This document shows, in pieces, positions 3,601 to 35,923 of a stretch of 35,923 nucleotides of DNA. The stretch is from Catajapyx aquilonaris (Eukaryota). The notes under the pieces were generated by a model. The model saw only the letters and a list, made by a program, of their open reading frames with translations, searched no databases and was not told the DNA's origin. A program made the position numbers and the translations under genes. Location: NCBI GenBank assembly GCA_000934665.2, contig JYFJ02003967.1:1-35923 (forward strand), read 5' to 3'. Position 1 is the stretch's first letter, and each line of letters starts with the position of its first letter.

Positions 3601-4092
3601 GGAGAGAAACCATACACTTGCAGTCATTGCAGTAAGAAATTCATGCAGAAGGCTGACATGAATGTTCACATCAATTCAGTTCACCTTGGCAAGAAGCCAC
3701 ATGAATGTGAATTTTGCTCTCGGAGATTTGCCAATTCCTTCGAGTTGAAATGTCACATGAGATCTATCCACTTGAAAGAAAAATCTTTCCCATGCGACGT
3801 GTGTGGTGAGGAATTTGCACATTCATATGATGTGCAGTGCCACAAGCGCAGATGGCACCAAAAAAGCGTGCCTTACTCATCACCTGGAAAGAAATTCCAA
3901 AGGTTTGCCGCAGGCTTTGACCATCCCGACGAAGAAGAGACACTGGAAGAAGAAGGACCAAGTGATTTGAAGGCTGTGGAGGACATTTCATCAGACGTGA
4001 GACCATCTCGACCAAAGACAACCATCGTTCATTTGGAAGAAGAGGACAAACACTTTGAGGCACAGGTAGGTGCGGCACAAAAGACAGGCTAG
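601..4092 (+). CDS. C2H2 zinc-finger gene copy 1, multi-exon; 5' end disrupted, 3' end fused to copy 2
   Basis: Phase-compatible GT-AG exons at about 601-894, 984-1044, 1474-1637 and from 3247. The last exon has 4 canonical fingers (CELC, CSHC, CEFC, CDVC) with a TGEKPY linker. Each exon has a homolog in copy 3. Confidence 0.75.
1098..1455. mobile_element. Foldback MITE with long terminal inverted repeats
   Basis: Ends are CAGGGAGCATATACTACATAAGAGGCGCAA ... TTGCGCCTCTTATGTAGTATATGCTCCCTG. The arms pair imperfectly over more than 130 bp. AT flanks both sides. It lies in an intron. Confidence 0.88.
1705..2252. mobile_element. Tc1/mariner-type MITE with TA target duplication
   Basis: TA|CAGGGTGTTTCCTGTAACTCTGTAAAGAC ... 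GTCTTTACAGAGTTACAGGAAACACCCTG|TA, with arms of about 85 bp (1705-1790, 2167-2252). Confidence 0.9.
1817..2161. mobile_element. Second MITE nested inside the mariner-type MITE
   Basis: CATAGACATGGAACGGGTGCGCTCAGAC ... GTCTGAGCGCACCCTTTCCTTGTCTATG, with imperfect arms of about 80 bp. No clear TSD. Confidence 0.82.
2739..3038. mobile_element. Foldback element with near-perfect inverted arms of about 80 bp
   Basis: CAGTAAAACTGCAGAAAACTATTCTTCCTCTGGGTGAGATTAAAAGTAAGAAACAAGTCCATAGGTGGGGGTTG (about 2757-2830) is reverse-complemented at about 2950-3023. Confidence 0.85.
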
Positions 4093-5462
4093 GGGAGAGG
4101 ATATGGTGTGGTTGCTGGCATATTGAGCTGTCACAAATTCAAAGATGAAGAGACAATTATTACTGTTTCATATTTGTCACAGCCAACACAATCAAATCTG
4201 CAATATGCTATTCTTTTACAACAATGTGACTTGAGTTGTAATTATTCTTCATAGCAGTAAAATAAGTTTGAATTTGATAAAATCCATCCATTTCATATTT
4301 CACCAGACAACTTATTTATTTGGTCCATTGACATAAAATGAATACAATTAAATCAATGCGTTGATGATTGGTGGTTAATTTTGTGCCTTTTTTTATTACA
4401 AAGGAGGGCTGGAAGGGAGGCATTTTGGACGATGAGGATCACAATGGAAGAGAGGATAACACGGAAGATTTCATGGGTGGAGAAGGAACTCTGCAAAAAG
4501 ACGTGAGTGGATTCATTTAGCCTTTCATTTGTCAAGGTTGTGTTGCAGGTTTGTCACATTTGTATCGGTTGTTTATTGGAGTAATTAGTATATTTAGAGA
4601 GAGCTAGTCATTACTTGTACAACTGAAGATTTCACTATCTGGACATTGATTTGTTAATTATCACTTCACTTAGGAGCATCCTGTGCAGAAGGACAAGTCT
4701 GCAAAGGTTCCTTCGCAGTGTGAGGTGTGCAGCAAGAAGTTCTTCTCGCAAAGGGAACTTAATGCATGTGTCAAGTCTCATGAGAAGGTTGCCAATGAGA
4801 GTGATGAGAAGGGAAGGAATCGAAGAATCAAGACTAATGGAGGGGGGAATTCAGGCAAGGGGGAGGAAAAGGAACGGCAAGAGGAGACGAAGCAATCAGG
4901 TGATGAAGTGGGGGTTGGTGGAGAGAGGATCAAAAAGATGCAAAAAGCACTTAGAACTAGTGGCAGGTACCAGTGTGAATTTTGTCCTCACAAGGTTCGA
5001 AAGTTGAGTCAGATGACCAGTCATTTGAGAACACACACTGGGGAGAAACCATACACTTGCAGTCATTGCAATAGGAAATTTACTCGGAAGAGCAACGTGA
5101 ATGTTCATATCAGTACAGTTCACTCTGGCAAGAAGCTACACACTTGTACGCATTGCAATAGGAAATTTGCTCGGAAGAGCAACGTGAATGCTCATATCAA
5201 ATCAGTTCACTTTGGCCAGAAGCCACATTAATGTAAATTTTGTTTCCGGAAATTTTCTGGTCACTTGAACCAACATGTAAATGTTGTTCACTTGAATTTG
5301 AAATTGCACTCATGTGATGTGTGTGGTGACAAATTTGCACATGCTCGTGATGTTCAGCGCACACAAGCGCACAGTGCACCAAAAGTGTGCACCTCATACT
5401 ATCAAATGTGGGAAGTAATTTGGCAGGAAGGACAGCCTAAGGGTGCACATGGCCCTCCATGA
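3914..5462 (+). pseudogene. C2H2 zinc-finger gene copy 2 (3' exons only; premature stop)
   Basis: Exons 3914-4065, 4404-4502 and from 4674, all phase-compatible. A TAA at 5229-5231 replaces the GAA of KPHE after 3 canonical fingers. The remaining fingers to about 5462 are frameshifted. Confidence 0.82.
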
Positions 5463-8210: not shown

Positions 8211-9431
8211 TTACTTTACAGTCAAGGCCACGTCAGGACGAGACCTTTTGAACTGAGCAATGGCCAGGCTCTTGTCGACATGATCACAATGTACTACTTT
8301 AACAGAGTTGAGGTTGAGGAGCACTTTGATCAAATCATGGAGGCCGTTGTGGGTGATTCTGGTGCATTCAACAAAGGCCAGCTTGGACAGTGAGGTGCAC
8401 CTCGCCCAATGGAGACGAGGCATGCGTCGTCAAAGTTGTCTGCAAATATCAGCTTCAATGATTCCAGCCCTCTAGTCATGTTGGGCCAGGTGAACAATTT
8501 AGTGGTGACCGACTGGTTCAGGAGGGATGGCCATGCAAGTGTCAGGTGGCTGAGGTTTTCGATGGTGCCAAGTCCATCAAGGGTCTGAGAAGCCCAGTGA
8601 GAAATATACGCAGAGATATTCAACCTGGGTAAATTGGGCCTGGGTCTGATACGGCTGCAGTGTATAAAACATCCCAAGTGTTAGCTTCTTGATTTGCGGG
8701 CCAGCAACTGAGGACAGCAGACGCAGTTCTTCTTCTTCATTACCTGAAGGACTGATGTAGACCTCGTTCAGGTTTGGCCAACTGTGCTGAAGAAATCCTG
8801 GACTGGCCCACCTTACATTTATTTTGCTGAGTGACAGGCGCAAACTGGTCAGCTGAGGAGCCACAGGCATGAGGTCCAGTACGTGAAGGCTGCCAGGTGT
8901 AAATCTGCAGCAGTCAATGGAGATGTGCTTCAGTTGCCTGCTGTACATCTGGAGAATCCCCTTGACCGTTTCTTCTCTCTTGATGCGGATCCACTTCAGC
9001 TGCAAAGACACCACGCCTGGAGCCACAGCATGAAGCACATCCATGATTCGATCATCTTCTGGTTCGACGAACTTCCAACTCTTCAACTCCAGCCTCTTGA
9101 CGTGCATCATCCGTCCCTCCAGCTGCCTCGCCAACTGCTGGGTTCTTCTGATTCTCCCACCTTCTGTAATGTCCTTGAAATTCCACCCATCCAGAGTGAC
9201 CTCCCTCCAGAGTTGCTGGTCGTAGGACATCCTCCTCCACTGCCTGCATACAGGTGCAGCCCTCTTCACAAGCTCACCCTTCGTCAGGTAGGAGAAGACC
9301 ATCAGCATGACCTCATCTGGAAGGAGAGGTCTGCCCTCCTCCGCCTGTGGAAGGATGGAAAAGGGGTAATGTTCCGCCTTGAACTAATCCCGATCCGTCC
9401 TCACCTGATGTTCCTCCTCTTCGTCTCCCAT
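8211..9431 (-). pseudogene. F-box/LRR gene copy 1, two frameshifts
   Basis: Exon 9431-9405, a 60-nt intron, then the main exon from 9344. F-box motif LPDEVMLMVFSYL...CRQWRR...LWREV. A deletion at about 8583 and a +2 shift at about 8402 relative to the paralogs. Confidence 0.9.
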
Positions 9432-12720: not shown

Positions 12721-14004
12721 TTACTTTACAATCAAGGCCACATCAGGACGAGACCTTTCAAACTGAGCAATGGCCAGGCTCTGGTCAACACAAGAGCACT
12801 TCTCAACACAAAGAGAGTTGAGATTCGGCAACAGCAGCGCCAAGTCGTGGAGGCCTTTGTGGGAGATTTCATGGCATTCGACAAAGCTCAGCTTGGCCAG
12901 AGAGGTGCATCTCCCCATGGACCTCAGGCATGCATCATCAAAATTGTCTGCACATAGCAGCGTGAATGATTCCAGCCCTCTAGTCACGTTGGGCCAGGAG
13001 AACAATTTAGTGGCCACCGACTGGTTCAAGAAGGATGGCTGTGCAAGTGACAGGTGGCGGAGGTTTCCAAGGGAATGGAGTCCGTCAAGGGCTCTGTGGT
13101 CTGATAAGTCGCGTAGGAATGTTACAGAGAGATCTTCCACCTGTGGAAATTGTGCCAGGGTCAGATACGGCTGCAATGAGTCAAACCACCCAACTCCCAG
13201 CTTCTTGATTTGGTGGCCAGCAACTGAGGACAGCAGACGGAGTTCTTCTTCTGCATCAATTGATGTAGGACCGATGAAGACCTCTTTCAGGTTTGGCCAA
13301 CTGTGCTTAAGAGAGCCTGGACTGGCCGACCTTGCATCTCTCATGGTGAGTGACAGGTACAAACTGGTGAGGTGTGGAGCCACGCACATGAGGTCCAAGA
13401 CGTGGAGGCAGTCAGGTGGAAGCTTGCACCAGTCAATAGAGATGTGCGTCAATTGCCTGCTGTACATCTGGATCATCCGTTTCATTGTTTCTTCTCTCTT
13501 GAAGGTGATAAGCCTCAGGTGCAGAGATGTGACCCCTGGAGCCACAGCGTGAAGCACATCTACGACCTGATCATCTTCTGGTTTGACGAACTCCCACCAA
13601 ACCAACTCCAGCCTCTTGACGTGGACCATCCGTCCCCTTTGAAGCTCCAGCTGCCTCACCAACTGCTGCACTTTGCTGACTGTCACTCTGCCACCTTCCC
13701 TTATTTCCTCGAAATTAATCCTATCCAGCGTGACCTCCCTCCAGAGTTCCTTGTCGTAGGACAGCCTCCTCCACTGCCTGCAGACCGGTGCTGCGATCTT
13801 CACAAGCTCCTCCTTTGTCAGATAGGAGAAGACCTTCAGCGTGACCTCGTCGGGAAGGAGAGGCCTGCCCTCCTCCACCTGCGGAAGGATCAAAAAAGGA
13901 GTAATGATCCGCCATAAACCAAGATCCGTCCGACCCGTCCCCACCTGCTGCCGTCCCTCCTCCTCTTGATGGTCTCCCATCTGCTGCTGCAGTGTGCACC
14001 CCAT
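12721..14004 (-). CDS. F-box/LRR protein copy 2, intact
   Basis: Uninterrupted ORF with F-box LLPDEVTLKVFSYLTKEELVKIAAPVCRQWRRLSYDKELWREV followed by cysteine-containing-type LRRs. Probable 66-nt intron 13944-13879, conserved in position in copies 1 and 3. Minus-strand AATAAA at about 12650. Confidence 0.92.
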   Translation of the reverse strand: MGCTLQQQMGDHQEEEGRQQVGTGRTDLGLWRIITPFLILPQVEEGRPLLPDEVTLKVFSYLTKEELVKIAAPVCRQWRRLSYDKELWREVTLDRINFEEIREGGRVTVSKVQQLVRQLELQRGRMVHVKRLELVWWEFVKPEDDQVVDVLHAVAPGVTSLHLRLITFKREETMKRMIQMYSRQLTHISIDWCKLPPDCLHVLDLMCVAPHLTSLYLSLTMRDARSASPGSLKHSWPNLKEVFIGPTSIDAEEELRLLSSVAGHQIKKLGVGWFDSLQPYLTLAQFPQVEDLSVTFLRDLSDHRALDGLHSLGNLRHLSLAQPSFLNQSVATKLFSWPNVTRGLESFTLLCADNFDDACLRSMGRCTSLAKLSFVECHEISHKGLHDLALLLPNLNSLCVEKCSCVDQSLAIAQFERSRPDVALIVK

Positions 14005-14099
14005 CTTCCTTCAGGATCCCAAGTCCTGTGGGAAGAAGAAGAGAAGCGGGAGGTGGCCTTGATGGGTCAGAGTGTACACAGGAGGAGGCTGGTCCCCAC

Positions 14100-16124: not shown

Positions 16125-17415
16125 TTATTCAAGTTGCAAGCTCACACATTGCATGGGTCTTCGTCGATATTGCCATAGACAAGGAATTACAGTCAAGGCC
16201 ACGTCAGGACGAGACCTTTTGAACTGAGCAATGGCCTGGCTCCTGTCAACACAACGGCAATTCTCAACACGAAGAGACTTGAGATTCGGCAACAATAGCG
16301 CCAAGTCATGGAGGCCTTTGTGGGAGATTTCACGGCATTGGACAAAGGTCAGCTTGGTCAGAGAGGTGGATCTCCCAATGGAACTCAGGCATGCATCATC
16401 GAAGTTGTCTGCAAATACCAGCCTGAATGATTCCAGGCCTCTAGTCATGTTTGGCAAGGAGAACAATTTAGTGGTCACCGACTGGTTCAGGAAGGATGGC
16501 CCTGAAAGTGTCAGGTGGCGGAGGTTTTCAAGGTAACCCAGTTCGTCAAGGGCTCTGTGGTCTGAGAAGTCGAATTGGATTCCTACATGGAAATCTTCCA
16601 CCTGTGGAAATCGTGCCAGGTTCAGATATGGGTCGAATGTCTCCTCCAAGTACCCAACTGATAGCTTCTTGATATGATGGCCAGCCACTGAGGACAGCAG
16701 CTGGAGTTCTTCTTCTGCGCTTGGAGAATCACTGATGAAGGCCTCGTTCACATTAGGCCAACTGTGCTTAAGTGATCCTGGATGTGCCCATCCTTTGTTG
16801 TCCATCAGGCGCAAACTGGTGAGGTGTGGAGCATCACACATGATGTCCATGACGTGAAGGCTGCCTGTCGGAAATGTGCACGCGTAAATAGAGATGTCTG
16901 TCAACTGCCTGCTGTACATCTGGATCATCCGTTTCATTGCTTCTTTTCCAGAGAAGCTGCTAAACGACAGGTGCAAAGACGTGATGCCTGGAGCCAAGGT
17001 CGGGAGGGCAGATAAGATTCGATCATCCTCTGGATGGAAATCCCATAAACCCAACTCCAGCTTCTTGACATGGATCATCCGTCCCCTGTGAAGCTTCAGC
17101 TGCCTCGCCAACTGCTGGGCTGCAGTTCTCCCACCTTCCCTTATGTCCTTGAAATTCAACTCACACAGCTGCACCTCCCTCCAGAGTAGTGGGTCGTAGG
17201 ACAGCCTCCTCCACTGCCTGCAGACAGGTGCAGCCCTCTTCACGAGCTCCCTTCTCGTCAGATAGGAGAAGACCTTCAGTGTGACCTCTTCAGGAAGGAG
17301 AGGCCTGCCCTCCTCCGCCTGCAGAAGGATGGAAAGTAGCGAAAGTGCATATTCTGACACGTACTCATCACAACTTCACCTGTTCTTCCACCTCTCGGCT
17401 CATGTAGCCTCCCAT
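16125..17415 (-). CDS. F-box/LRR protein copy 3, open frame with extended C-terminus
   Basis: Exon 17415-17380, a 61-nt intron, and main exon 17318-16125. The VALTVK-stop end is lost by a small deletion, adding about 20 residues. Confidence 0.88.
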
Positions 17416-19463: not shown

Positions 19464-20630
19464 TCAAAAACCTAGCACATGGGAAATTATATAAAAGGCC
19501 ACGTCAGGACGAGACCTTTTGAAATGAGCAGTGGCCAAGCTCCTGTCAACACCATCACAATTAACTACTTTAACAGACTTTAGTTTTGGCAGCACTTTGA
19601 TCAAATCATGGAGGCCATCGTGGGTGATTTCAGGGCAGCAAGCAAAGCTCAGCTTGGAGAGAGAGGTGCATCTCCCCATGGACATGAGGCATGCGTTGTC
19701 AAAGTTGGCAAACATCAGCCTGAATGATTCCAGCCCTCTAGTCATGTTTGGCCAGGAGAACAATTTAGTGGCCACCGACTGGTTCAGGAAGGATGGCCAC
19801 CTCAGGGTCAGGCGGTGAAGGTTTCCAAGGGAACTGAGTCCGTCAAGGGCTCTGTCGTCTGAGAAGGGGAGTGGGAATGATACGGAGAGATCTTCCACCT
19901 GTGGAAATTGTGCCAGGGCCAGATATGGCTGCGATGTGTTAAACCATCTAACTTTCAGCTTCTTGATTTGTTGGCCAGCAACTGAGGACAGCAGACGGAG
20001 TTCTTCATCTGCATCATTTGATATATTACCGATGCAGACCTCATTCAGGTTTGGCCAAATGTGCTTGAGAGATCCTGGGGGTGACCACCTTAGTTCTCCT
20101 CCATTGTCTGACAGGTGCAAACTGGTGAGCTGTGGAGCCAGGCACATGAGGTCCAAGACGTGAAGACTGTCAGGCGGAAACGTGCACCCGTAAACTAAGA
20201 TGTGCGTCAACTGCCTGCTGTACATCTGGATCATCCGTTTCATTGTTTCTTCTCTCGTGAAGGTGATACGCCTCAGGTGCAGAGATGTGACCCCTGGAGC
20301 CACAGCATGAAGCACATCTACGATCTGGTCATCTTCAGGTTTGAGGAACTGCCACCAAACCAACTCCAGCCTCTTGACGTGGACCATCCGTCCCCTTTGA
20401 AGCTCCAGCTGCCTCACCAACTGCTGGGCTCTGCTGATTGTCACTCTCCCACCTTCCCTTATGTCCTGGAAATTCATCTCACTGAGCTTCGCCTCCCTCC
20501 AGAGTTCTCTGTCGTAGGACAGCCTCCTCCACTGCCTGCAGACCGATGCTGCACTCTTCACCAGCTCCTCTTTCGTCAGGTAGGAGATCTTGAGAGTCAC
20601 TTCATCTGGGAAGAGTGGGCTGCCCTCTGC
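19464..20630 (-). CDS. F-box/LRR copy 4: main exon open, first exon and promoter missing
   Basis: Acceptor CAG at 20633-20631. F-box LFPDEVTLKISYLTKEELV has a one-codon deletion. Sequence upstream of about 20670 is the 3' flank of copy 5. The C-terminus is altered. Confidence 0.78.
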   Translation of the reverse strand, partial: AEGSPLFPDEVTLKISYLTKEELVKSAASVCRQWRRLSYDRELWREAKLSEMNFQDIREGGRVTISRAQQLVRQLELQRGRMVHVKRLELVWWQFLKPEDDQIVDVLHAVAPGVTSLHLRRITFTREETMKRMIQMYSRQLTHILVYGCTFPPDSLHVLDLMCLAPQLTSLHLSDNGGELRWSPPGSLKHIWPNLNEVCIGNISNDADEELRLLSSVAGQQIKKLKVRWFNTSQPYLALAQFPQVEDLSVSFPLPFSDDRALDGLSSLGNLHRLTLRWPSFLNQSVATKLFSWPNMTRGLESFRLMFANFDNACLMSMGRCTSLSKLSFACCPEITHDGLHDLIKVLPKLKSVKVVNCDGVDRSLATAHFKRSRPDVAFYIISHVLGF

Positions 20631-21037
20631 CTGTTGAAGGACCAAAAGGGTAATCATAATAATGGCCTTCATAATAAATTTTGAAAAGTGCTGCTTTAAT
20701 GGACACAAAATAAACATTTCTCTCGGATTTCTCACCTTTCTTGTTAAGGAGCTAGTGTCACCTGATGAGGGACCTTTTCCAGCCGCAGCGTATGATGTGG
20801 CTCGTAAAACTAGTGGAAACAAGTGCCCTTGCAATGGCTGATTAGGAGGGAAGTATTCTTCAGCAGCAGATGAGGGATGCTTACTCGCTTGCAAATCACA
20901 CGGAGGTCAGCTTGAAGCTGGGAAAACAATTGCAGGCCATCATTTACAAGAAGAATTCCCTCAATTTATTTTCCATCCTTTTATTCAAGTTGCATGGGTC
21001 TTGCCAATTGCCCGCAGTCAAACTGGCTAATGGGGAA

Positions 21038-21922
21038 TTACTTTACAGTCAAGGCCACATCAGGACGAGACCTTTCAAACTGAGCAATGGCCAGGCTCTG
21101 GTCAACACTGGTGCACCTCTCAACATGAACAGACTTGAGGTTTGGCAACAGTAGCGCCAAGTCATGGAGGCCTTTGTGGGAGATTTCACGGCATTCGACA
21201 AAGGTCAGCTTGGTCAGAGAGGTGGATCTCCCAATGGAACTCAGGCATGCATCATCAAAGTTGTCTGCAAATTCCAGCCTGAATGATTCCAGGCCTCGAG
21301 TCATGTTTGGCAAGGAGAACAATTTAGTGGTCACCGACTGGTTCAGGAAGGATGGCCATGTAAGTGTCAGGTGGCGGAGGTTTTCAAGGGAACCGAGTCC
21401 ATCAAGGGCTCTGTTGTCTGAGAAGCGGAATGGGAACATGAACTGGAGATATTCAACCTGTGGAAACTGTGCCACGGTCAGATATGGCTGCAATGTGTTA
21501 AACCATCTAACTTTCAGTTTCTTGATTTGCTGGCCAGCAACTGAGGACAGCAGACGGAGTTCTTCATCTGAATCATTTGTTGGAGGACGGATGCAGACCT
21601 CATTCAGGTTTGGCCAACTGTGCTCAATTAATCCTGGATTGGGCAACCTTGGACTTGGTTCATTGCAAGACAGGTCCAAACTGGTGAGGTGCGGAGCGTC
21701 ACACATGATGTCCAAGGCATGGAGGCTGCCAGGTGGAGATACGCAGGAGAAAAGTGAGATGTGCGTCAGTTGCCTGCTGTACATCAGGTGCATCCGTGTG
21801 AGTGTTTCTTCTCTCTTGATCGTCATGTGCGCCAGGTGCAGAGACACGACCCCTGGAGCCTCCCATGTCTTGAATCCGTCAGACTCGAAATGGCTTCTCC
21901 CCGGTAGGGCAGCATATCCCAT
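21038..21922 (-). CDS. LRR-only copy 5 (F-box deleted; novel 21-aa N-terminus)
   Basis: Homology to the paralogs stops at APGVVSL (about 21860). An in-frame ATG lies at 21922. No stops, and the canonical VALTVK* end is kept. Confidence 0.7.
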   Translation of the reverse strand: MGYAALPGRSHFESDGFKTWEAPGVVSLHLAHMTIKREETLTRMHLMYSRQLTHISLFSCVSPPGSLHALDIMCDAPHLTSLDLSCNEPSPRLPNPGLIEHSWPNLNEVCIRPPTNDSDEELRLLSSVAGQQIKKLKVRWFNTLQPYLTVAQFPQVEYLQFMFPFRFSDNRALDGLGSLENLRHLTLTWPSFLNQSVTTKLFSLPNMTRGLESFRLEFADNFDDACLSSIGRSTSLTKLTFVECREISHKGLHDLALLLPNLKSVHVERCTSVDQSLAIAQFERSRPDVALTVK

Positions 21923-22057
21923 TGACTCAATATGGTTTCTCCCCTGTCATTACTGCTCATAATATTTCCTTTTCCTCTTGAACGAGACAGACAACAATCC
22001 TTCTCGAGAGAAAGAGGGCCTGGTTTGTTGTTGTTGTTGTTGGGTTCAACTATCCAG

Positions 22058-25000
22058 ATGGATGGGAATAAGGGAGGAGGAGACGTGGTGGGGATGGGGA
22101 TCGACCAGATGGGCCCCCTGATGGAGGCCGTGCTGGGGAACAGGGGAGGGGCCTGGAGGGAAGAATGGGGAAGGTGGAGGGAATGCTGCAGGAGTTGCTG
22201 TTGTTGGGGAGAAGATGGCCACGGGATGAAGGAGGTTGGTTGTTGGAAGGGGGTCGGAAGGGGTGTTTCCCGTTGCTGATGAAACTGCCCTTAGTTACAG
22301 GTGGAGGGGCATGCGAGCCGTCAAGTACTCCTGTCGTGAAGGAAGAATTAGGGGCAGAAGAAGACCCAACAGTGCACGCATTGGACCCGCAAGCAGCAGA
22401 TGAAAATGACGCTGTATATAGGCCTACATGATGATGAACGCAACAATCAGGTTGGTTCCAGGAGGACACACGAATAAATTTTAAGGGCGGTAGCCCTTAA
22501 GACCGTAGCGTAGATTTCAACAATGAATTTTTTCCACTTGTTGTTGTTATTACGTTTTTTTTATTCGCCCTAACTCAAGTTCTGCTGTAGGTAGAGCTTC
22601 CAAATTTTGAACACAGATGCCCACCGTCGTAAAGTGCATTCCTAATTTCATAAAACACTAAAGGCCATTTCACACAAAAAAAAATCGCGCGTTGCGGCAT
22701 ATTTGTTGCATCGCCTCGGTTTGCCGCATGTGCGAACACAAAAAGAGCTGCGACACGACTGACGACTAGCGACAAGTCTGGGAAACAAAAGACAAAAGTC
22801 AAGTGACCGACAACCACGACTCCCTATTGGCTGCGTCATATTCAACGCGCGACAAATTCTGGCCGGCCTACTCCTGCAGTGCGGGATATTTGTCGCGCGA
22901 CAAACTCCGACGCGCTGCAAATTTTTTTTGTGAATTGCACTGCGACGCGTTTGCCGCTTGATGCTGCCGCAAAATCTTTTTGTGAAATGGCCTTAATAGG
23001 AAGTGGCTCACGGAAAATTAATGGGTGGAATTTTCTTTGTACTACTAGTAACTATAGTTACTGGTAATTTAGCAGTACCATTGCACTACACTGGTACTGC
23101 TAAGTTAGAAGTAACTATAGTAGAATAACGAAAATTCCACAAATTGTTTTCAGAAAGGAGACTTCATGAGCAGTAAATTGGAAATTGCTTGAGTAAGACC
23201 TGTGGTACAGGTTAAATCAATTGGTGAAGGTCTTACGTGCGCCTGCCTTGTTTCAGTACCTTCATTCCGCTGCGGAGGTCTTACTACCCTTTTTTTCACT
23301 CAAAGGAATGTTTTTGCTCTTATTATTCTAATAATATTACTGCGATATTAAATTAGGATGTGTCATTCCTGTTTCAGGATGAAGGATTGGCAGGAGAAAA
23401 TTATTCGGACAGTTCAGGACACAACAACAACAACAACAACAACAACATCACGACAGTTCAGGACACAATAAATGCAATAGGTGTATCAAATAATACTGGC
23501 TTTAGCTGGAACATCAGGGTGGTTCAATTGAAACGTTTGTAACCCGCTGGTCATGATCTGCCATTGAGCTGATTATTTTTAAGCAGTGGCTTTGAAATGA
23601 TAATAATGTGAACGTTGTCATGTGTTCCTTCCAATATTAGGGGAGGATTAGGAGGATGTACTGACTTGGAAAGTGTTGGTTCTCTCATAGCATTTGCTGC
23701 TTAAAATTATTATGTAGTGCTGTGAACACTGCATTTTGGGAATCCCTACAAAGTGTTATGAAATTTGCAATAACTTCTTACGTTGCATCATGACTACATT
23801 TTTACACAGTTTGCCTGCCAATCCAATTGCATTGCACCTTTTCATTTGCCATCCTGTTCATAGGAAAACTTAATTGCATTTGTCTTCCAGTGTTATGAAA
23901 TGAAAGCAATGAAGTACACTTTTTAATCTTGCAGGATAAAGGGTTGGAAGAGGAATATTCCAGCACTGCTGGATGCGCAGGGGAAGCAGGCAACGGTCAG
24001 TTTAATGGGATTTAATGACTAGTGAAATTGAGCGTAATTTTGACATTCCATGTTTTCGACAGGCTTTGACTTTCATGCTGATGAGGAGGCAGAGACACCG
24101 GCGGAAGAATCCTGCAGTTTGGATGCTCTGCAAGGCAATACTTCAGACGTGAGACCATCTCTCCCAAAGACAACCATTGTTCATGAAGAAGAAGACGAGA
24201 AGCACTTTGAGACGCAGGTACTCTCCGACTCACATAAGAGTGAACCTTTTCGGATAATCATTCGTCCGAGGGGTCGGTGAGCTGCCAGTGTCAAGAATTT
24301 CTTGACACTGGCAGAGCGGAGGCAAATACGAACCTACTGTATAGTTCTACAGCCTATGTCACAGTCGAGAAGGATTGCAGAAGATTTGAACAATAATTGA
24401 TCTCTTAATCCTCCAAGACATAGACACCATGCCACTCACTTCCGATGGCAAACTAATTCGCTTTATCACATGAAATACCAGTCTCAATTTTTTTTTTTCA
24501 CTAGATCTGATTGGTTCATTTTTGATTGATCAAATCTGCAACATCACTTTTATTTTACAACATTACAACTCCTTAAAAAAAAGTATTTAAATGAGTAAAT
24601 TGAATTTCAATTATTATTGGTTTCACATTAGGATGATTAGTTACCGGGAAAGAATTGATTATAATGTAAACAATACGCTAATGATTATAATTATCTTTTT
24701 TTAAATTATTACTAAGGAGGACTGGAAGGAAGGCATTTTGGAAGCTGAGGATCAAAATGAGGAGGAAATGAGTCTTGAAGATTTAATAAGTGAAGGAGGA
24801 GTAACTCAACAAAACGAGGTGAGTTGATTATTAACACGCTCATTCAATTGTCAGGGTTGCATTGCTTGGTTGTCACAGTTCCTTTATTTGGTGCGGTCTA
24901 TTTGTTACTTGTGCAGCTGAAGATTTCGCAGTCAGGATATTGAGTTGATTGGTTCTTATCACTTCATTTTTTAGGAGGATCCTCTGCAGAATGACAAGTC

Positions 25001-25844
25001 TGCAAAGGTCCCCTTGCAGTGTGAGGTGTGCAGCAAGACGTTCTTCTCGCAAAGGGGACTTAATGCATGTGTCAAGTCTCATGAGAAGGCTGCGGATGGG
25101 GGCAAGGAGAAGGCAATGAATCGAAGAATCAAGACTAATGGAGGGGGAGAATCAGGGAAGGGGAAAGAAAAGGAACGGCAAGAGGAGACGAAGCAATCTG
25201 GTGATGAAGTGGGTGTTGGTGGAGAGAGGATCAAAAAGATGCGAAAAGCACTTAAAACTAATGGCAGGTACCAGTGCGAATTTTGTTCTTACAAGGCTCC
25301 CTATAAGTGTAACTTGACCGAGCATTTGAGTACACACACTGGGGAGAAACCATACACTTGCAGTCATTGCAATAGGAAATTTACTCGGAAGAGTGACATG
25401 AAGGTTCATATCAGTTCAGTTCACTTTGGAGAGAAGCCAGGGAAGCCACACACTTGTAGGCATTGCAGTATGAAATTTACTCGGAAGGGTCAATTGAATG
25501 TTCATATCAGGTCGGTTCACTCTGGCAAGAAGCCACACACTTGTACGCATTGCAGTAAGAAATTTGCTTGGAAGAGCAACATGAATGTTCATATCAATTC
25601 AGTTCACTTTGGACAGAAGCCACACGAATGTAAATTTTGCTCCCAGAAATTTTCTTCCAGTGGTGACTTGAAACGTCACGTAAATGCTGTTCACTTGAAT
25701 TTGAAATTCCACTCATGTGACGTGTGTGGTGACAAATTTGCACAAGCTTGGATAGTTCAGCGCCACAAGCGTATAGTGCACGCGAAGTGTGCACCTCATT
25801 CTCAAAATGTGGGACGGAATAATTTGGCAGGAAGCACAGCCTGA
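22058..25844 (+). CDS. C2H2 zinc-finger gene copy 3 (full exon set; apparent frameshifts in exon 1, so possibly a pseudogene)
   Basis: Exons 22058-22450, 23378-23480 or 23935-23995, 24063-24217, 24717-24818 and 24975-25844. One atypical plus 6 canonical fingers. A 10-nt insertion (TATAGGCCTA) near 22420 and a frame shift near 22283 relative to copy 1. Confidence 0.78.
22662..22993. mobile_element. PIF/Harbinger MITE
   Basis: TAA|AGGCCATTTCACA ... TGTGAAATGGCCT|TAA: 13-bp TIR and TAA target duplication. Confidence 0.9.
23023..23141. mobile_element. Palindromic MITE of about 115-120 bp, family copy 1
   Basis: GGGTGGAATTTTC ... GAAAATTCCAC with a TTAGCAGTA/TACTGCTAA core. AAT flanks. Confidence 0.75.
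23423..23446 (+). repeat. (CAA)n microsatellite within a zinc-finger exon (poly-Asn)
   Basis: About 8 CAA units, absent from the copy 1 homolog. Confidence 0.9.
24282..24314. repeat. 33-bp palindrome, probably a transposon remnant
   Basis: CTGCCAGTGTCAAGAA-T-TTCTTGACACTGGCAG. Confidence 0.85.
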
Positions 25845-28310: not shown

Positions 28311-31300
28311 CTACGTCTCCTTCCCCTACGGAAGAGGAAAAGAAATGAATAAATAGATCAGCCTCCAAACAGGTCCTGCAGCCAACATATTCTCAAACTA
28401 TCCAATGTCACTGTGTCCCTTCCACAATATTGAAGTGTTCTAAACTTCTAATCAATTAAGTTGATTTTGACCCTTATTCAATACCAAAGCCGTCGAATAT
28501 TTCCAAGGCCCTACGGTTCATTTTCAGGTTTTTGTAACCCACCGATCTGGATATTTTAGAGCCTTTTTAGTGCCGTCGCAAAAGCTTCCAATGTAAATGT
28601 CATAAGACATTTTAGACGCGAGAAATCTTTTTTATTTATGGATGGATTTTTGTGTTTTTGGTGTGTCAGCATATACAGTAGGCCATTTTATGACCTGTCA
28701 TATTCACAGTATCACACCATTCAGAGGCCACAAAGAGAGTCCGTCACGACACAAAGTAACTTAGTGATTTACTATACAGTCGTTGACTCTGGATGTAAGA
28801 GCATTCAGGATACCTTAATAATGATCAAGGTTTCTTACAGCCAACTTACCCTTTTTTTTTTGCAATGAATACACAAAGTTTTGCCTGACGCATGCTTATA
28901 ATGCATGAAATTATTCACAAAGCGCGAAATTAGTTCATCCAGGAGAAAAATAATTCGAGATTTGCTTCAGCCATCTCCTTGTTGACAAAGGGTGGAATTT
29001 ATTTCGTCCCACACTCCCACTGTTCTGTATGTAGTTACTAACTTAGCAGTACCATTGCCAATGCTACTAAGTTAGCAATAATAAGTATCAGTGAGACGAA
29101 AATTCCACCCAAACATATCAAGAAAAGGAATGATTTTGACCTACTTTTAGGAAAGTGTGAAGGACAGTACATTGTACATAAAGGACTACGCCAACTGGGT
29201 GAAATGGCAGGATTAATTAGCATCATTACCGACAGATGTTACCGCCATTTCTTTCTACAGTTACGATTTCGTAAATTCCCCAATTGCTTCTAATATCTGT
29301 TGATAGAAACTGGACTGGTAAGAACCATATTTGTCAAGAACTCCCCCCCACCCCCCCACCCCGACCCCTCAATATATACCTTCAAAAGTTTGGCGACATC
29401 ATCATATCCCTCCTCCTTTGCGAGGTCAAGGGGTGTCTTCCCTTCATCATCTCTGGCCAACTTGTCCGCTCCCTTGGAGAGAAGGAAGCTAACCAGTTCT
29501 GGTTGGTTCCACCTTGCCGCATAGTGGAGTGGGGTCCTATTCCCCCATCCCTTGTCCTCCAGCCCTGCCCCTTCCTCCAGGAGTAACTCCACAACCTGGA
29601 CGTGGCCTCCTTCTGAAGCGAGGTGGATGGGCTGGTCCCCATACTTGTCCTTTGCCCCCACATCCGCCGCCCCTTCCTTGATCAGTGTCTGGCAGGTGGA
29701 GAGGTGTCCTCCCTCTGCTGCCAAGTGGAGGGCTGTCCAGCCCCCATGGTCTCCCTGGTTGACAGGCCATCCTTCACCCAGCAGGTATGCGACCACCTCT
29801 TCCCTTCCTCTCCGTGCAGCATTGTGAAGACCACTCCGTTTGTACTCATCCTTCACCCCCAGCACCCACCTCTCCACCCCACCCCCTCCTCCCTCCTCCA
29901 CCATCCTCTTCACCTCCTCCAGCCTGCCTTCCCAGCAGGCCTCCAGGAACATTGGTATGTTCTGCAAGGGAACAGCAAGAGCTACGTTAAGGCGCATCAC
30001 TCATCGCTACACGCATGTAACAGCCATTGTCCTGAAGTTACACCATCGCAATGGTTAACATTATTGTTGTTCGTTGCCCAACAATATTGATGGCATACCG
30101 TAGATCTGAATGATTCAAGTTTTGAAATGCTCAGAAGTGTCTCAAGTTTTGGCCCTACCATAATTTGTTTCGATATGATGAGCTTCATTTGTCGCTCGAA
30201 AAATTTCAATAATGTAATCGGTGTCGTGCCAAACCCGCTCAGGCATGTCTGGCCTTATACCGTTGCACTATTATCTTGTAGGTGCTCGTGATGCCGGATC
30301 TTTTCACCATGCAAGTCATGTGTCTCCACAAAAAAAGGCCATCGGGGTAAGATCTGAGCTTCTGGAGGGGCTATATAGGCATGGCGAAACTTCTCATTAA
30401 AGACTTCGCACACTGGGATGCTGAACAAATGAGACTTTCCTATATACGGCAGGTTTGTTCCTTGGATGAGGCGACTTTTTATGTGAATCATCAAGAACAA
30501 TGTCTGTGGTGTAAAGACCCAAGATATCAAGTACTTACGGGATATGATTATTGCAACGGTAACTCCAGATATGATTGAGCGGGTTTGGCTCGAGACCGAT
30601 TACCTCCTTTTTTTATCTGCCGTGCGATACGTGAAGCTCGTATCTAAACAAACTAAGGTGGGCCCAAAACTTTAGACCTTTCTTAGCATTTAAAAATCAT
30701 TCAGATATGTCTACAAGTTTCTGAGTTATAGGGTTTTCAAATTGGGACATTATTTTTCGATGACCATGAATTGTTTAACCTCAAACCTAAGAAGGTGTAT
30801 TTTTATCCCATCTAGTGCATGTGGAAGGGAATATCCAAGACTTACGAGCTTCGTCCACCCCCAATGTAACGTCTCTCGGCTCTGACCAAGACCATCATTC
30901 TCTGAACGTTAACCATTGTTCTTTGGAGTGGACACAAACAGATCTCCACAATAATTAATCATGGTTCAGCGTAGTCCGGTAGAGTCGCCTAATAAATGCT
31001 CCGTGAAAGGTCTCATGGCGCTCTCAGGTGAGCACCTCCTGCAAAACGCCCGGGCAGGGGGTAGGTGGGAGTGTCCAGACCTTAGTAGTCTATGGTGACC
31101 ATGGACCCGGCCTATACCTAAAAGTGTCATGGCGGCTCTCTGTGCGTGAAAATTTTTACGGGCTATACAGTTAGGTGTTATCCCTTCATTCATTTATTCC
31201 CGGGCAACGCCGGGTATCGCAGCTATTGTACATAAAGTACACTACTATGCCAAATGGGTGAAATGGCCGCATTAATATATTAGCACCATTACCGACAGAT

Positions 31301-34300
31301 GATACCGCAATTTCTTTCTACAGTTACGATTTCGTAAATTCCCCAATTGCTTGTAATATCTGTTGATAGAAACTGGACTGGTAAGAACCAGATTTGTCAA
31401 GAACTCTCTCTTCCCCACGCCCCCTCAATATATACCTTCAAAAGTTTGACGACATCATCATATCCCATATTTTTTGCAATGTCAAGGGGTGTCCTCCCAA
31501 ACGCGTCTATTGCCGACTCGTCTGCTCCCTTGGACAGAAGGAAGCGAACCACTTCTGGTTGGTCGTTCTCTGCCGCCCAGTGGAGTGGGGTCCTTCTCCA
31601 CATCCCCTCGTCCTCCAGCCCTGCCCCTTCCTCCAGTAGTAACTCCACGACCTGGACGTGGCCTCTATAAGAAGCGTAGTGGATGGGCTGGTTACTAATC
31701 AGGTCCTTTGCCCCCACATTCGCCCCTTTCCCGATTAGCATATGGCAGGTGGACATGCGTCCTTCCTCCGCTGCATAGTGAAGGGGTGTTTTGCCCCCAG
31801 AGTGTTCCTGGTTGACAGGCCATCCTTCACCCAGCAAGTATGCGACCACCTCTTCCCTTCCTCCCTTTGCAGCAAGGTGGAGTGCACTCTTTCCATCCTC
31901 ATCCTTCGCTCCCACCCACCATTCCACCCCATCCCCTCCACCATCCTCCACCATCCTCTTCACCTCTTCCAGCCTCCCTTCCTGGCAGGCCTCCAGGAAC
32001 ATTATTGGGTCGAATTTTCGTCCCACTGCTAGTTCCTGCTAACTTAGCAGTATCAGTGCCAGCACTGATACTGCTACTGCTAAGTTAGCAGGAAGTAGCA
32101 GTGGGACGCAAATTCGACCCATTGACATTTTCTGCAAGAGAACAGCAAGAGCCTCGTTAAGGCGCATCACCCATCGCTATACGCATGTAACAGCCATTGT
32201 CCTGAAGTTACACCATCGCAATGGTTAGCATTATTGTTGTTTGTTGCCCAACAATATTGATGGCATACCGTATCTGAATGATTTAAGTTTTGAAATGCTC
32301 AGAAGTGTCTCAAGTTTTGGCCCTACCATAGTTTGTTTCGATATGAGCTCCATTTGTCGCTCGAAAAATTTAAATACTGTAATCGGTGTCGTGCCAGACC
32401 CGCTCAGGCATGTCTGGCCTTACCGTTGCACTTCTTATCTTGTAGGTGCTCGTGATGCCGGATCTTTTCACCAGCATACATGTGTCTCCACAAAAAAAGA
32501 CCATCGGGGTAAGATCTGGGCTTCTGGAGGGGCTATATAGGCATGGCGAAACTTCTCATTAAAGACTTGGCTTACTGGGAGGCTGAACAAATAATGAAAC
32601 TTTCCTACGACAGGTTTGTTTCATGGATGAGGCGACTTTTTATGTGAATCATCAAGAACAACGTTTGTGGTGTACAGACCCAAGATATCCAGCACCTACG
32701 GGATAGGATTATTGCAACGGTAACTCCAGATAATTATGATTGACAGGGTTTGGCACAACACCGATTACCGCCCTTTTAAAAAAATCTGCCATGCGACACA
32801 TGATATCGAAACAAGCTAAGGTCAGACCAAAACTTATTATTAGACCTTTCTTAGCATTTCAACATCATTCAGATATGTCTACAAGTTTCCGAGTTATAGG
32901 GTTTTCAAATTGGGAAATTCTTTTTCGATGACCCTGTATTTTTAAACCTCAAACGTATGAACGTGTATTTTTTAATCCCATCTACTGCGTGGTGAAGGAT
33001 ATATCCTAGACTTACGAACTTCCTCCACCCCCAATACAGACTCTCGTGGCTCGGACCAAGACCACCTCTGAACGTTAAAGATTGTTCTTTGCAGTGGACA
33101 CAAACAGACCTCCACAATAATTGATTGATGTTGCAGGGCAATTGATTGATGACAAATATTGAGCTTTATATTAATAGGGATTTTTCGTGTATGTTCTACC
33201 TGTAGTACTTGTGAAGAGAGCAAATACCGCACTCATTATCGCCTTATAGAAGTGCTGTAAAAATTCGCGAACCTCTGGTAGGCCTAGGCTCGCGCTGCCA
33301 CAGATGGTAATTCAAATAAATCCTTATCACCTTTCTCCCCCTGTCGAGGGACAACTGGACCTGTTTCTCCACTTCAGAAGAGGACACTCTTGAGGACACA
33401 TCTCGTGTCATCATTTTCTGGATTAGACCTGATTCGTCTCCATGGATGCGTGTAAAACCCTGTGCGAAAGGGTCCCCCCTCCTGAGGGATGTGAAGGCCC
33501 TCCTCCTCCCTTCCTTGTCCTCTCCGAATGGGGACAACATCTCGTACAATATCAGGCCCATGGAATACACGTCAGTCTTGGGACCGTACTCACTCCCGCT
33601 CATCTGCTCGGGGGAGCAGTAGAGTCTGGTCCCAACACCGCCAGTCCTCTCTGGTTGGGACTGATCAGGGGGGACTCCGGGTTGGGATGGTTGGACTGGA
33701 CATGGAGGGTGGGAGGGGGAAGGAGGAGGATGGGCCAGGAGGGAGGTGGAGAGACCGAAGTCACCAATCTTCACTCTCTCCCCACCGCCCAGGGCAAAAA
33801 GGATGTTGTAAGGTTTCAGATCGCGGTGGATCAGTCCCTGCGAGTGGATGTAACAAACTGCGGATGCTATTTGTCCGAAGAGGGTGAGTTTGGCGGACTT
33901 TCCCATGTCCAATCTTCCATCGTCCATCTTGTGTCCCAGGGCTTCCTTTTCGCACAGTTCGAGCTGCATGAAGAGGAAGTCCATGGTGGGTCCTGCCACC
34001 GTCATGGGAGAGGTGAAGTAGACGGATGCTGCCTCCGAGGCCTCCCTCGCCTCTGGACCAGGCCTGTTGTAGCATGTGGCCGTCATGGCGTCCCACTCCT
34101 TCTGGACCCAACATGGATAGCTCTCAGTCCAGGCGTGGTAGAACTTCACGACATGATCGTGTTCCATCCGAGCCAGTGCCTTGACCTCCCTCAGGATGAC
34201 CCCCTGCAGTTGATCGTCTTGAGGGAGAGGAACCCTCTTCACCGCGTAACGTGCCTCTGTCAGCTTCAGTTCAACCTCGGCCGCGACTCCGAAGGACCCC

Positions 34301-35832
34301 TCACCCAAGATGGACACCTGCTTGTAGTCCGACATGTACCTGGGCACCACTGTCGTTTCCTTTGCAGCTTTTTGCACGTTGTCCTCGGCCCTGACGGATT
34401 GAAATCAATGAGTGTTACGAGTGTAATTTTTGAAGTAGCATGTATTTTTTTTAAATAAAGGATAAGGATGTTAGGATATCGAAATTCATGCTGAATGTTA
34501 TTCCAGTCCTGTGTTAATCTAATGAACAACCTCTCTGGCGGTAGCATCGATAAGAACGTTCTTTATCGCCAAAGGAATGTTAAACTGATTTTTTAAAATT
34601 ACTGGCTGCAAAATGTTCATTAGAGAATTAGCATTGTTTCTGTAGTGTGCAGGAATCAAGATAAATTATTACAGTATCTTACAAGTGCCATGTACGGAAT
34701 CAAAAACTGTTCAAGTTCAAAATTTAAGCAATGCAACATTCGTTATTCGTAAGCTAACAAGACAGTAGTACTAGCCCACGTATTATCGCGATCCTAAACA
34801 AACCTAGCAAGAATATAGTTTCATGACCACCCAGTTGGCAGTATACAGGATTGAGACATGCAATGGCGTAAATAAATGAATCATCTTAGACTTACTGTTA
34901 GAGCATATTAAAACTAAACAATAGTCGTATGTGTTAAGGCAACGGATGTCATGCACTCACCTGGCCTGTGTGGCATGAGTCCGCTTCAGGTGATCAATGA
35001 TGAATCCATGCAGCTCTACATGATTTTTGAGAAGGGCCAGGGAGGCGGGTGTGGCCCCATCCTTGTCCGTGGCCTGGGGGTCACTCTTTCCCTCCAACAA
35101 GAGGAGGCTGGCCACATCCAGATGGCCGGACATGCAGGCCAAGTGCAGTGGGGTGTGGCCAGTGTGGGTGGTTCGGGTGTCCGAGGAGGCCCCTCTGTCC
35201 AGGAGGAGTCTGCACGTCTCCACCAGACCACTCCTGGCAGACCAGTGGAGGGCTGTCCTTCCCTCCAAGTCCCTCTCGTCCACCTTTTCGCGTCCAGTCA
35301 GGCCCAGGAGGGTTCGACAGACGCCCACCTTCCTGGCCCGACACGCCACCATCAGGGGGGTCTCCCCATGTCCATTCCTCTTGTTCACCTCTTCTCTTCT
35401 TTCTCCCAACAACCTGCCAACGTCTTCTTCCCTTCCCATGGCCGCCATGACGTGAACGTCCTCTTGCATGCCCAGGAGGAACTTGGCCATCTCCTTTCTG
35501 TCCTTCTTCACCGCCACCCCTTGAGACGTCTTCTTCTCTCCATTCTTCTCATCCGGATCCGCCCCCCACTCCAGGAGAAGCCTCCCCACTTGGACGTTCC
35601 CAGCCTCCGCCGCCGTGTGCAGAGGGGTGTCCCCCACCTTGGTCTTGGCCATTGGGTGTGCCCCTTCCTCCAGCAGAAGGCGGCAGACCTGCAGGTGGTT
35701 GAACTCTGATGCCTCGTGCAGGGCAGTCTTGTCCTGGTGAGTGGAGGCCAGGTTGACCCTTGCCCCCCTCTTGACCAGTTCCTCGCACACTGGAATCCAA
35801 CCACGTCTGGAGGCCACCATCAGTGGTGTCAC
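28311..35832 (-). CDS. Predicted multi-exon ankyrin / eIF2-alpha kinase (PERK-like) / ankyrin gene; 5' end uncertain or outside the window
   Basis: Exons at about 35832-34961, 34390-33331, 32131-31436 (MITE-disrupted), 29961-29380 and 28325-28311. All junctions are GT-AG and phase-compatible (2,0,0,0). Confidence 0.65.
28990..29110. mobile_element. Palindromic MITE, family copy 2
   Basis: AAA|GGGTGGAATT ... AATTCCACCC|AAA. Confidence 0.82.
29380..29961 (-). CDS. Ankyrin-repeat exon A (about 6 repeats)
   Basis: Repeat cores FLEAC, SGLHNAA, TALHLAA, QPIHLAS, TPLHYAA, TPLDLAK. Acceptor GTTCCCTTGCAG, donor AAG|GTATAT, 582 nt. Confidence 0.9.
30105..30705. mobile_element. Old foldback element with diverged inverted arms of about 135 bp; duplicated at about 32272-32873
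   Basis: 30105-30241 is an imperfect reverse complement of 30576-30705 (e.g. GTAATCGGTGTCGTGCCAAACCCGCTCA / TGAGCGGGTTTGGCTCGAGACCGATTAC). Confidence 0.75.
30957..31226 (+). mobile_element. Helitron-like 3' fragment
   Basis: Subterminal hairpin CCCGGGCAACGCCGGG followed about 8 nt later by CTAT (canonical end is CTRR). Confidence 0.62.
31436..32131 (-). CDS. Ankyrin-repeat exon B (about 6 repeats), with a MITE and an in-frame TAG near its 5' end
   Basis: Paralog of exon A with SALHLAA, TPLHYAA, QPIHYAS, TPLHWAA, TPLDIAK. Stop at 32041-32039. Confidence 0.85.
32007..32120. mobile_element. Palindromic MITE, family copy 3 (young; inside exon B)
   Basis: ATT|GGGTCGAATT ... AATTCGACCC|ATT with near-perfect arms. 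Absent from exon A (empty site). Confidence 0.93.
33331..34390 (-). CDS. eIF2-alpha kinase domain, PERK/EIF2AK3-like, on one exon
   Basis: RYMSDY, LGEGSFG, YAVKRVPLP, LREVKALARMEH, LFMQLELC, IHRDLKPYNILF, VKIGDFGL, RTGGVGTRLYCSPEQ and DVYSMGLILYEML parallel PERK motifs. The kinase insert is short. Confidence 0.92.
34961..35832 (-). CDS. N-terminal ankyrin-repeat exon (about 9 repeats, some degenerate)
   Basis: TPLMVAS, TALHEAS, TPLHTAA, TPLMVAC, TALHWSA, TPLHLAC, TPASLAL. Ends at a strong donor AG|GTGAGT. Confidence 0.92.
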
Positions 35833-35923
35833 CGGTAGAAATTGTCTCCAAAATATAGCGACACTAATGATTCTTTATGAGAGGAAAAGCCCCCCCTTTT
35901 TAGCCATTTGGCAGAGATGTAAG

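Follow-up and report, generated by a model that had tools for sequence, protein, structure and literature searches.

A stretch of 35,923 nucleotides from Catajapyx aquilonaris (assembly GCA_000934665.2, contig JYFJ02003967.1, positions 1 to 35,923), hereafter the window, carries near its right-hand end two adjacent minus-strand exons, one encoding an array of ankyrin repeats and the other an entire protein kinase domain that belongs, with good support, close to PERK in the eIF2-alpha kinase family. One catalytic core is common to the known eIF2-alpha kinases, of which there are four or five, and what sets them apart is the sensor domain joined to that core. The ankyrin and kinase exons are likely to be joined by splicing at a predicted junction (34961/34390), and the combination of ankyrin repeats with a PERK-type kinase is probably a new domain variant of this known kinase family. 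The fuller proposal, to which we give about equal weight for and against, is that the locus is a single gene whose product, as far as the window extends, is a soluble cytosolic protein with ~640-670 residues, in which nine ankyrin repeats are followed by a ~30-residue linker and a complete PERK-derived kinase that would be activated by dimerization and act on eIF2-alpha.

Gene layout and the predicted splice junction

With AT-rich spacers between GC-rich open frames, the window resembles eukaryotic, probably animal, nuclear DNA. On the minus strand, the ankyrin open frame spans 34957..35874 (305 codons, stop to stop) and the kinase open frame spans 33244..34404 (386 codons, with an in-frame stop upstream at 34405). 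With the first in-frame ATG (35820-35818) taken as its beginning, the ankyrin-repeat exon (34961..35820) measures 860 nt up to its phase-2 donor, the kinase exon (33331..34390, 1060 nt) holds the entire PERK-type kinase domain, and between them lies a predicted GT..AG intron of 570 nt (34391..34960). Both exons are more than chance open frames, given their length and their extreme Pfam E-values: Ank at 9.4e-50 and Ank_2 at 2.4e-47 in the ankyrin exon, and Pkinase at 1e-40 in the kinase frame, where only Pkinase and PK_Tyr_Ser-Thr were detected. Visual inspection gives nine ankyrin repeat units, with units 4 and 5 in degenerate form; the best PDB matches of the exon are ankyrin-1/2, NOMPC and DARPins, and the array looks like generic ankyrin. 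When the ankyrin exon was modelled by AlphaFold from its single sequence, the mean predicted local distance difference test (pLDDT) score was 39, too low for use, and an Rfam scan of the window returned 0 families.

The ankyrin exon ends in GCC AG at 34961 and is followed by GTGAGT, with the frame-closing TGA inside the donor. The acceptor AG lies at 34392-34391 and the first base of the kinase exon is the G at 34390; AG and G together encode Arg, and the joined reading is ...THATQAR-AEDNVQK...PRYMSDY. These coordinates and the phase are, to the base, those proposed in an earlier annotation of the same DNA (the sequence-only reading), and the end that it gave, 33331, is the last base of the AAG preceding GTGATA. 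Donors were scored across 33000-35923 using a rough matrix with a cut-off of 7 bits, and the donor CAGGTGAGT at 34961, which has the full consensus, is at 12.5 bits the top of the four sites above that cut-off. GC content is 0.57-0.61 in the flanking exons versus ~0.35 in the interval between them, and the cliff in composition coincides with both splice sites. GC content at third codon positions (GC3) is likewise high in the exons, at 0.68-0.74 (ankyrin 0.74, kinase 0.68).

The two exons might instead belong to separate transcription units or be spliced differently, with the ankyrin exon ending there or spliced past the kinase exon and the kinase made alone from Met19 or from another first exon, in the manner of shark PKR-sis. 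The sole ATG of the kinase exon (Met19, 34335-34333) sits right where the kinase core begins, frame compatibility by itself is a 1 in 3 event, kinase-only EIF2AKs exist (PMC11305385), and none of the relatives examined carries the fusion. However, a start at Met19 would remove Arg17 (34341-34339) of the SRYxxDF motif, a position occupied by Arg in 47 of the 52 family rows compared below, and the stretch from the in-frame stop at 34405 to Arg17 contains no ATG; because the only ATG of the exon falls after Arg17, an upstream exon is required for a complete N-lobe. The 18 codons from the acceptor to this ATG are coding-like (GC3 of 0.67 versus 0.68 for the rest of the exon), and the composition cliff is located at the acceptor rather than at the ATG. 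A private first exon for the kinase within the 570-nt interval is unlikely and was rejected because no donor there exceeds 7 bits with the rough matrix. The perfect donor that closes the ankyrin frame argues for onward splicing. Given an interval without a usable donor, and an ankyrin donor that is the nearest, the strongest and in frame, the ankyrin exon is the obvious partner of the kinase exon, and separate units appear unlikely. If the predicted splice were not real, the locus would be an ankyrin gene beside a kinase-only PERK paralogue and its interest would drop.

Placement of the kinase within the eIF2-alpha kinase family

A sequence search of the PDB with the kinase ranked PERK first (3.3e-49, 3qd2), followed by GCN2 (1e-38), HRI (4.5e-36) and PKR (8.5e-33), with CDPK as the next family (5.9e-20). 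Scoring of the query against 1.84 billion representatives yielded 435 proteins at E <= 1e-30, and the best 150 of the 435 were used. The top E-values in this set are those of fish gene models, whose scores are inflated because these models contain two or three kinase domains each; when single kinase domains were rescored, PERK reached 134-189 bits, HRI 71-149 bits, GCN2 113-133 bits and PKR 85-128 bits.

Phylogenetic analysis was performed at two levels of curation. On a quick maximum likelihood tree of 59 rows, the query kinase falls within a PERK and PKR clade (support 96) and sits inside PERK at 91/86/85. On a careful maximum likelihood tree of 39 rows, from which 20 rows had been removed (redundant fish PKR-like sequences, near-identical pairs and the five longest rows except the query), the query is nested among the PERKs (support 99/95 and 95/91), insect PERKs are weakly sister to it (88/87 and 86/71), and the PKR clade is separate (99/99). 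Identity between the query and the nearest PERKs is ~37%. An AlphaFold (AF2) model of the kinase built with 39 relatives had a mean pLDDT of 86.5, and in a Foldseek comparison of this model with the PDB, ranks 1-12 were all PERK, followed by GCN2 and PKR. A search of the Protein Atlas with the kinase returned generic kinase clusters only. The PDB ranking, the trees and Foldseek agree with the PERK-like eIF2-alpha kinase proposed in the sequence-only reading, and membership of this family, close to PERK, is well supported by these comparisons.

Catalytic and dimer-interface residues

To compare the kinase at the level of residues, the query was aligned with 52 family rows and, in a second alignment, with 39 relatives. 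The query keeps the Gly loop, Lys51 (34239-34237), Glu68, HRD 188-190 (Asp190, 33822-33820), Asn195, DFG 210-212 (Asp210, 33762-33760) and SPEQ 259-262; the columns of Lys51, Glu68, His188-Arg189-Asp190, Asn195 and Asp210-Phe211-Gly212 are invariant, and the query conforms to all of them. The family activation loop HTGxVGTxLYMSPEQ reads ERTGGVGTRLYCSPEQ in the query and includes Thr249 (33645-33643), where 50/52 rows have Thr or Ser, and Thr254 (33630-33628), where 51/52 have Thr; both are Thr in the query and are the equivalents of PKR T446 and T451, respectively. The catalytic Lys, alphaC Glu, HRD, DFG, activation-loop Thr and SPE, all described earlier as intact, were confirmed against both alignments, and the kinase is, on the strength of these residues, very likely to be catalytically active.

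The SRYxxDF motif is present as PRYMSDY, with Arg17, Asp21 and Tyr22 kept; the last two columns hold Glu or Asp in 51/52 rows and Phe or Tyr in all 52. Arg17 corresponds to PKR R262, which forms a salt bridge with D266 across the dimer. An insert of ~45 residues between beta4 and beta5 (roughly 90-135) opens with a PERK-like W.Q.E.D pattern and aligns with the inserts of PERK, HRI and GCN2, while a bacterial outgroup row is without it, and a Pro-rich insert follows DFG at a place where PERK, HRI and GCN2 carry inserts too. A complex prediction with two copies of the kinase exon scored 0.38 against a mark of 0.42.

The alpha-G helix and the substrate

Helix alpha-G, which docks eIF2-alpha in PKR, departs from the family. 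The motif PFxTxMER...L..LR...FP reads PFGEDKEGRRRAFTSLRRGDPFA in the query, where PFxTxMER has become PFGEDKEGR: Glu290 (33522-33520) replaces the Thr found in 46/52 rows or the Ser found in 4/52, the Met of 35/52 rows is Lys, and a one-residue insertion is present that occurs in none of the 52 rows. Further along, the Pro309 position, which is Pro in 45/52 rows, is Ala. The deviant Thr position is that of PKR Thr487, which is needed for the phosphorylation of eIF2-alpha. Because alpha-G has lost a near-invariant Thr and gained a unique insertion, eIF2-alpha is a probable but not a secure substrate.

It could be, therefore, that the locus does encode an ankyrin-bearing, PERK-derived kinase but that the remodelled alpha-G recognises another substrate, in which case the protein would not be a translation-shutoff kinase. 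The change from T-x-M-E-R to E-D-K-E-G-R, with loss of the Thr or Ser of 50/52 rows, the unique insertion, the loss of Pro309, the long branch of the query and the role of PKR Thr487 are all in keeping with such a change. On the other side, the helix retains Glu293 (51/52 rows), Arg295 (43/52) and Arg303 (43/52), the remaining C-lobe is aligned gap-free and modelled with high confidence, and we know of no other substrate for kinases of the PERK clade, which counts against a changed one. On balance a different substrate seems fairly unlikely, although it is the strongest of the competing explanations, and eIF2-alpha is retained as the probable target. The altered helix would provide a natural test of the residues that fix eIF2-alpha specificity.

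A further explanation, suggested in part by the same features, is that the locus is a silent or dying lineage-specific chimera, consisting of a single-exon PERK-derived copy, possibly a retrocopy, beside an ankyrin exon. The entire kinase domain lies within one exon, and EIF2AK3 genes elsewhere are multi-exon, with 15-22 exons in chordates and 4 in invertebrates according to PMC5851622. The long branch and deviant alpha-G helix could be signs of decay, and the surrounding region is rich in tandem duplicates and transposon remnants. However, the frame is still open over 353 codons in a kinase with ~37% identity to its closest PERKs, the catalytic and dimer-interface residues are intact and high GC3 is maintained. 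An intact frame and intact key residues at this level of identity require long purifying selection, and a dying chimera is accordingly improbable. An origin by retrocopy followed by capture of the exon is only a guess.

Ends of the gene and membrane segments

Upstream of the ATG at 35820, the ankyrin frame is open to 35874, and the 54 nt of this open frame look non-coding by composition, with a GC3 of 0.33 versus 0.74 in the exon. The 5' side as a whole (35821..35923, minus strand, GC 0.41) may be 5' untranslated region or the end of an intron and is bounded by the window edge at 35923. The residues ..LPVTPL precede the Met, such that the TPLx motif of the first repeat is completed upstream of the ATG, and a possible acceptor (ttttggag/A) is located near 35846. 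Two arrangements are possible: either the ATG at 35820 is the start, or the short piece after the ~35846 acceptor belongs to the exon and additional exons lie beyond 35923.

At the other end, the kinase domain finishes with ...DRGRK at 33331 and is followed by a weak donor, AAG/GTGATA, that scores below 7 bits. The segment 33244..33330 (minus strand) can thus be read in two ways. Read-through would add 28 codons, with a GC3 of 0.43 versus 0.68 in the exon, before a stop at 33246-33244, giving a protein of 668 residues counted from the ATG; use of the weak donor would give 640 residues plus those of at least one additional exon. This donor (33331) is in phase 0 and is frame-compatible with a phase-0 ankyrin exon that starts at 29961 on the minus strand, and a longer ankyrin-kinase-ankyrin product is possible.

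Kyte-Doolittle means over 19 residues reach at most 1.03 for the kinase frame and 1.55 for the ankyrin frame, where the peak falls before the ATG in the non-coding-looking sequence. By the same measure the stretch from the repeats to the kinase contains no hydrophobic segment, which bears out the earlier statement that no transmembrane segment separates the two.

Distribution of the ankyrin and kinase architecture

To determine whether the architecture is already known, several sets of relatives were searched for ankyrin repeats. A phmmer search with the ankyrin exon against the 380 nearest relatives of the kinase gave 0 matches even at E <= 10, and a Pfam scan of the 35 top relatives found Ank in none of them, the domains present being dsrm, z-alpha, PQQ_2, HRI2_3H, RWD and HisRS-type. 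Inspection by eye of the precomputed Pfam columns of 240 relative rows likewise revealed no Ank accession. Among metagenome contigs, 51 loci with distant relatives were examined by tblastn (1e-5) and ankyrin was detected in 0/51; the best-segment identity at these loci is <=41%, except for one 30-residue stretch at 53%. Viral contigs gave no pattern match. No ankyrin-bearing eIF2-alpha kinase is described in the literature searched by full text, with subscription journals outside the search, and the word "ankyrin" has 0 occurrences in the text of PMC5851622 and of PMC11305385, with the supplements outside the search.

The sequence-only reading had regarded ankyrin repeats as a sensor not used by the known eIF2-alpha kinases. 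That holds across the 380 relatives, the 51 metagenome loci and the literature searched, with the qualification that the list of relatives covered the best 150 of 435. As for its broader claim of a translation-shutoff kinase created by fusion, the architecture and the PERK-like family are probably right, but the eIF2-alpha substrate is less secure owing to the deviation of alpha-G.

Comparison with known systems

PERK (EIF2AK3, PEK) is the closest known system. The query kinase is nested in the PERK clade, has PERK as its best PDB sequence match and at fold ranks 1-12, and has in common with PERK a beta4-beta5 insert, a long insertion following DFG and the pattern of the activation loop. It differs in its altered alpha-G motif, its long branch and its N-terminal region: the 305 upstream codons encode ankyrin repeats only, with no luminal PQQ_2-like domain or membrane segment within the window, although the same Pfam scan did detect PQQ_2 in relatives. 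PKR, PKZ and shark PKR-sis offer a likeness of another kind, since in them too a single eIF2-alpha kinase core is paired with a cytosolic N-terminal domain that can be exchanged, ankyrin in the case of the proposed protein. According to PMC11305385, this domain is a dsRBD in PKR and Z-alpha in PKZ and is absent from PKR-sis. The query, however, lies outside the separate PKR clade (99/99), and its N-terminus consists of ankyrin repeats rather than a fold that binds nucleic acid.

RNase L is also a soluble protein with an ankyrin array N-terminal to a kinase fold. Its nine repeats bind 2',5'-oligoadenylate (2-5A) and drive dimerization, and they are followed by a pseudokinase and a C-terminal KEN ribonuclease. 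The query kinase, in contrast, is catalytic and PERK-derived, Pfam detected no RNase domain in the query, and RNase L is not among the 60 PDB matches listed for the ankyrin exon; the analogy with RNase L drawn in the earlier annotation thus stands for the logic of the arrangement and not for its components. Ankyrin repeats and a kinase fold are also combined in ILK, TNNI3K, ANKK1/RIPK4 and DAPK1, where the repeats serve as protein-docking modules. Those proteins have kinase domains of the TKL or CAMK groups, unlike the eIF2-alpha kinase domain of the query, and none of them was near the query in the PDB and relative searches.

A possible mechanism and its significance

The eIF2-alpha kinases are activated by back-to-back dimerization and trans-autophosphorylation. 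If the predicted protein follows the family, the ankyrin repeats would occupy the place of the luminal sensor and membrane anchor, by which PERK is driven to oligomerize, and binding of a protein or small ligand to them might cluster the kinase or release it from inhibition. Two N-lobes would then pair back to back, leading to trans-phosphorylation of the activation-loop Thr, and the activated kinase would phosphorylate Ser51 of eIF2-alpha and lower translation initiation. A precedent for activation by imposed pairing is catshark PKR-sis, a kinase-only EIF2AK that acts as an eIF2-alpha Ser51 kinase in yeast when dimerization is forced by glutathione S-transferase, as reported in PMC11305385.

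The way in which eIF2-alpha kinases come by new sensors is under active study. The same paper makes the case that PKR originated through acquisition of a new, dsRNA-binding N-terminal domain by an EIF2AK (PMC11305385). If the proposed gene is real, it would represent a second, independent case of sensor exchange in an EIF2AK, with an ER (endoplasmic reticulum)-luminal sensor exchanged for cytosolic ankyrin repeats, and would point to a stress or infection signal not yet linked to the integrated stress response. A long shot beyond this, close to the antiviral role in a lineage lacking PKR that the sequence-only reading suggested, is that a PKR-like defence was invented independently in an animal lineage outside the jawed vertebrates, where PKR is absent. 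In such a defence a PERK-derived kinase freed from the ER membrane would, by the logic of RNase L, use ankyrin repeats as a cytosolic receptor for a pathogen protein or small second messenger and respond with ligand-driven dimerization and translation shutoff.

Several points weigh against the proposal of a single soluble, PERK-derived eIF2-alpha kinase. The splice on which it depends was predicted from the DNA, and the fusion is without comparative support because the relatives examined included no orthologue or paralogue of matching architecture. On the careful tree, the end branch of the query is 1.95 versus a median of 0.7, a length that leaves its exact place within PERK unsure. The N-terminus is at or beyond the window edge, such that extra domains, even a membrane anchor, may lie upstream, and the 3' end is ambiguous between read-through and the weak donor. 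To these is added the substitution of Thr, the insertion and the loss of Pro in and after alpha-G.

Neighbouring elements in the window

The region adjoining the kinase gene contains a tandem duplication with units of ~2.06-2.17 kb (29216-30959 and 31279-33125) that ends ~120 nt downstream of the stop of the kinase gene. Each unit has one ankyrin-only exon on the minus strand (29380-29961 and 31436-32131), phase 0 on both sides; the acceptor reads ..ttgcag, with an ATG a few codons later, and the donor reads TTGAAG/GTATAT. The proteins of the two exons are 70% identical. Exonic DNA is 75-82% identical between the units versus 91-97% for the flanking non-coding DNA, and the greater exonic divergence could result from diversifying selection or from gene conversion of the flanks. 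These neighbouring exons were considered as the source of the ankyrin exon of the kinase gene and rejected, given that they share only generic repeat similarity of 29-42% with it.

A near-perfect palindrome at 32006-32121, whose 57-nt arms show 91% complementarity and are separated by 2 nt, looks like a miniature inverted-repeat transposable element. Of the two duplicated units, only the upstream copy carries it, at a site after the acceptor of the ankyrin exon and before its ATG, where it introduces a stop when read from the acceptor in phase 0; its insertion into one copy accounts for the spacing of 2170 versus 2056 nt. Degenerate transposon remnants also lie inside the duplicated unit (30214-30603 and 32380-32740). 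The inverted ends of the former (30214-30257 and 30560-30603) are 84% complementary, and a broken frame in the remnants reads ..PSRSPDLTP.., which is reminiscent of the C-terminus of mariner-type transposases; the one plus-strand open reading frame (ORF) tested from a remnant had no Pfam match.

Elsewhere in the window, the minus strand carries a tandem array of five intronless ORFs that resemble one another (8577-9383, 12721-14010, 16125-17375, 19464-20906 and 21038-21946). Four contain an F-box-like domain (Pfam 1.4e-13 to 4.8e-9), while the LRR_14 match of the fifth is sub-threshold; the C-terminal sequence is similar throughout the set. A word-indexed search with one F-box ORF found none at E <= 1e-10 among 8000 candidates, a saturated list that is not evidence of absence, and look-alikes in the Protein Atlas fall in chordate and arthropod clusters, which serve as a lead only. 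The array gives the impression of a family that is expanding in this lineage specifically. On the plus strand are three paralogous C2H2 zinc-finger ORFs (3247-4092, 4674-5231 and 24975-25844) that have in common an N-terminal stretch and a Lys/Gly-rich spacer.

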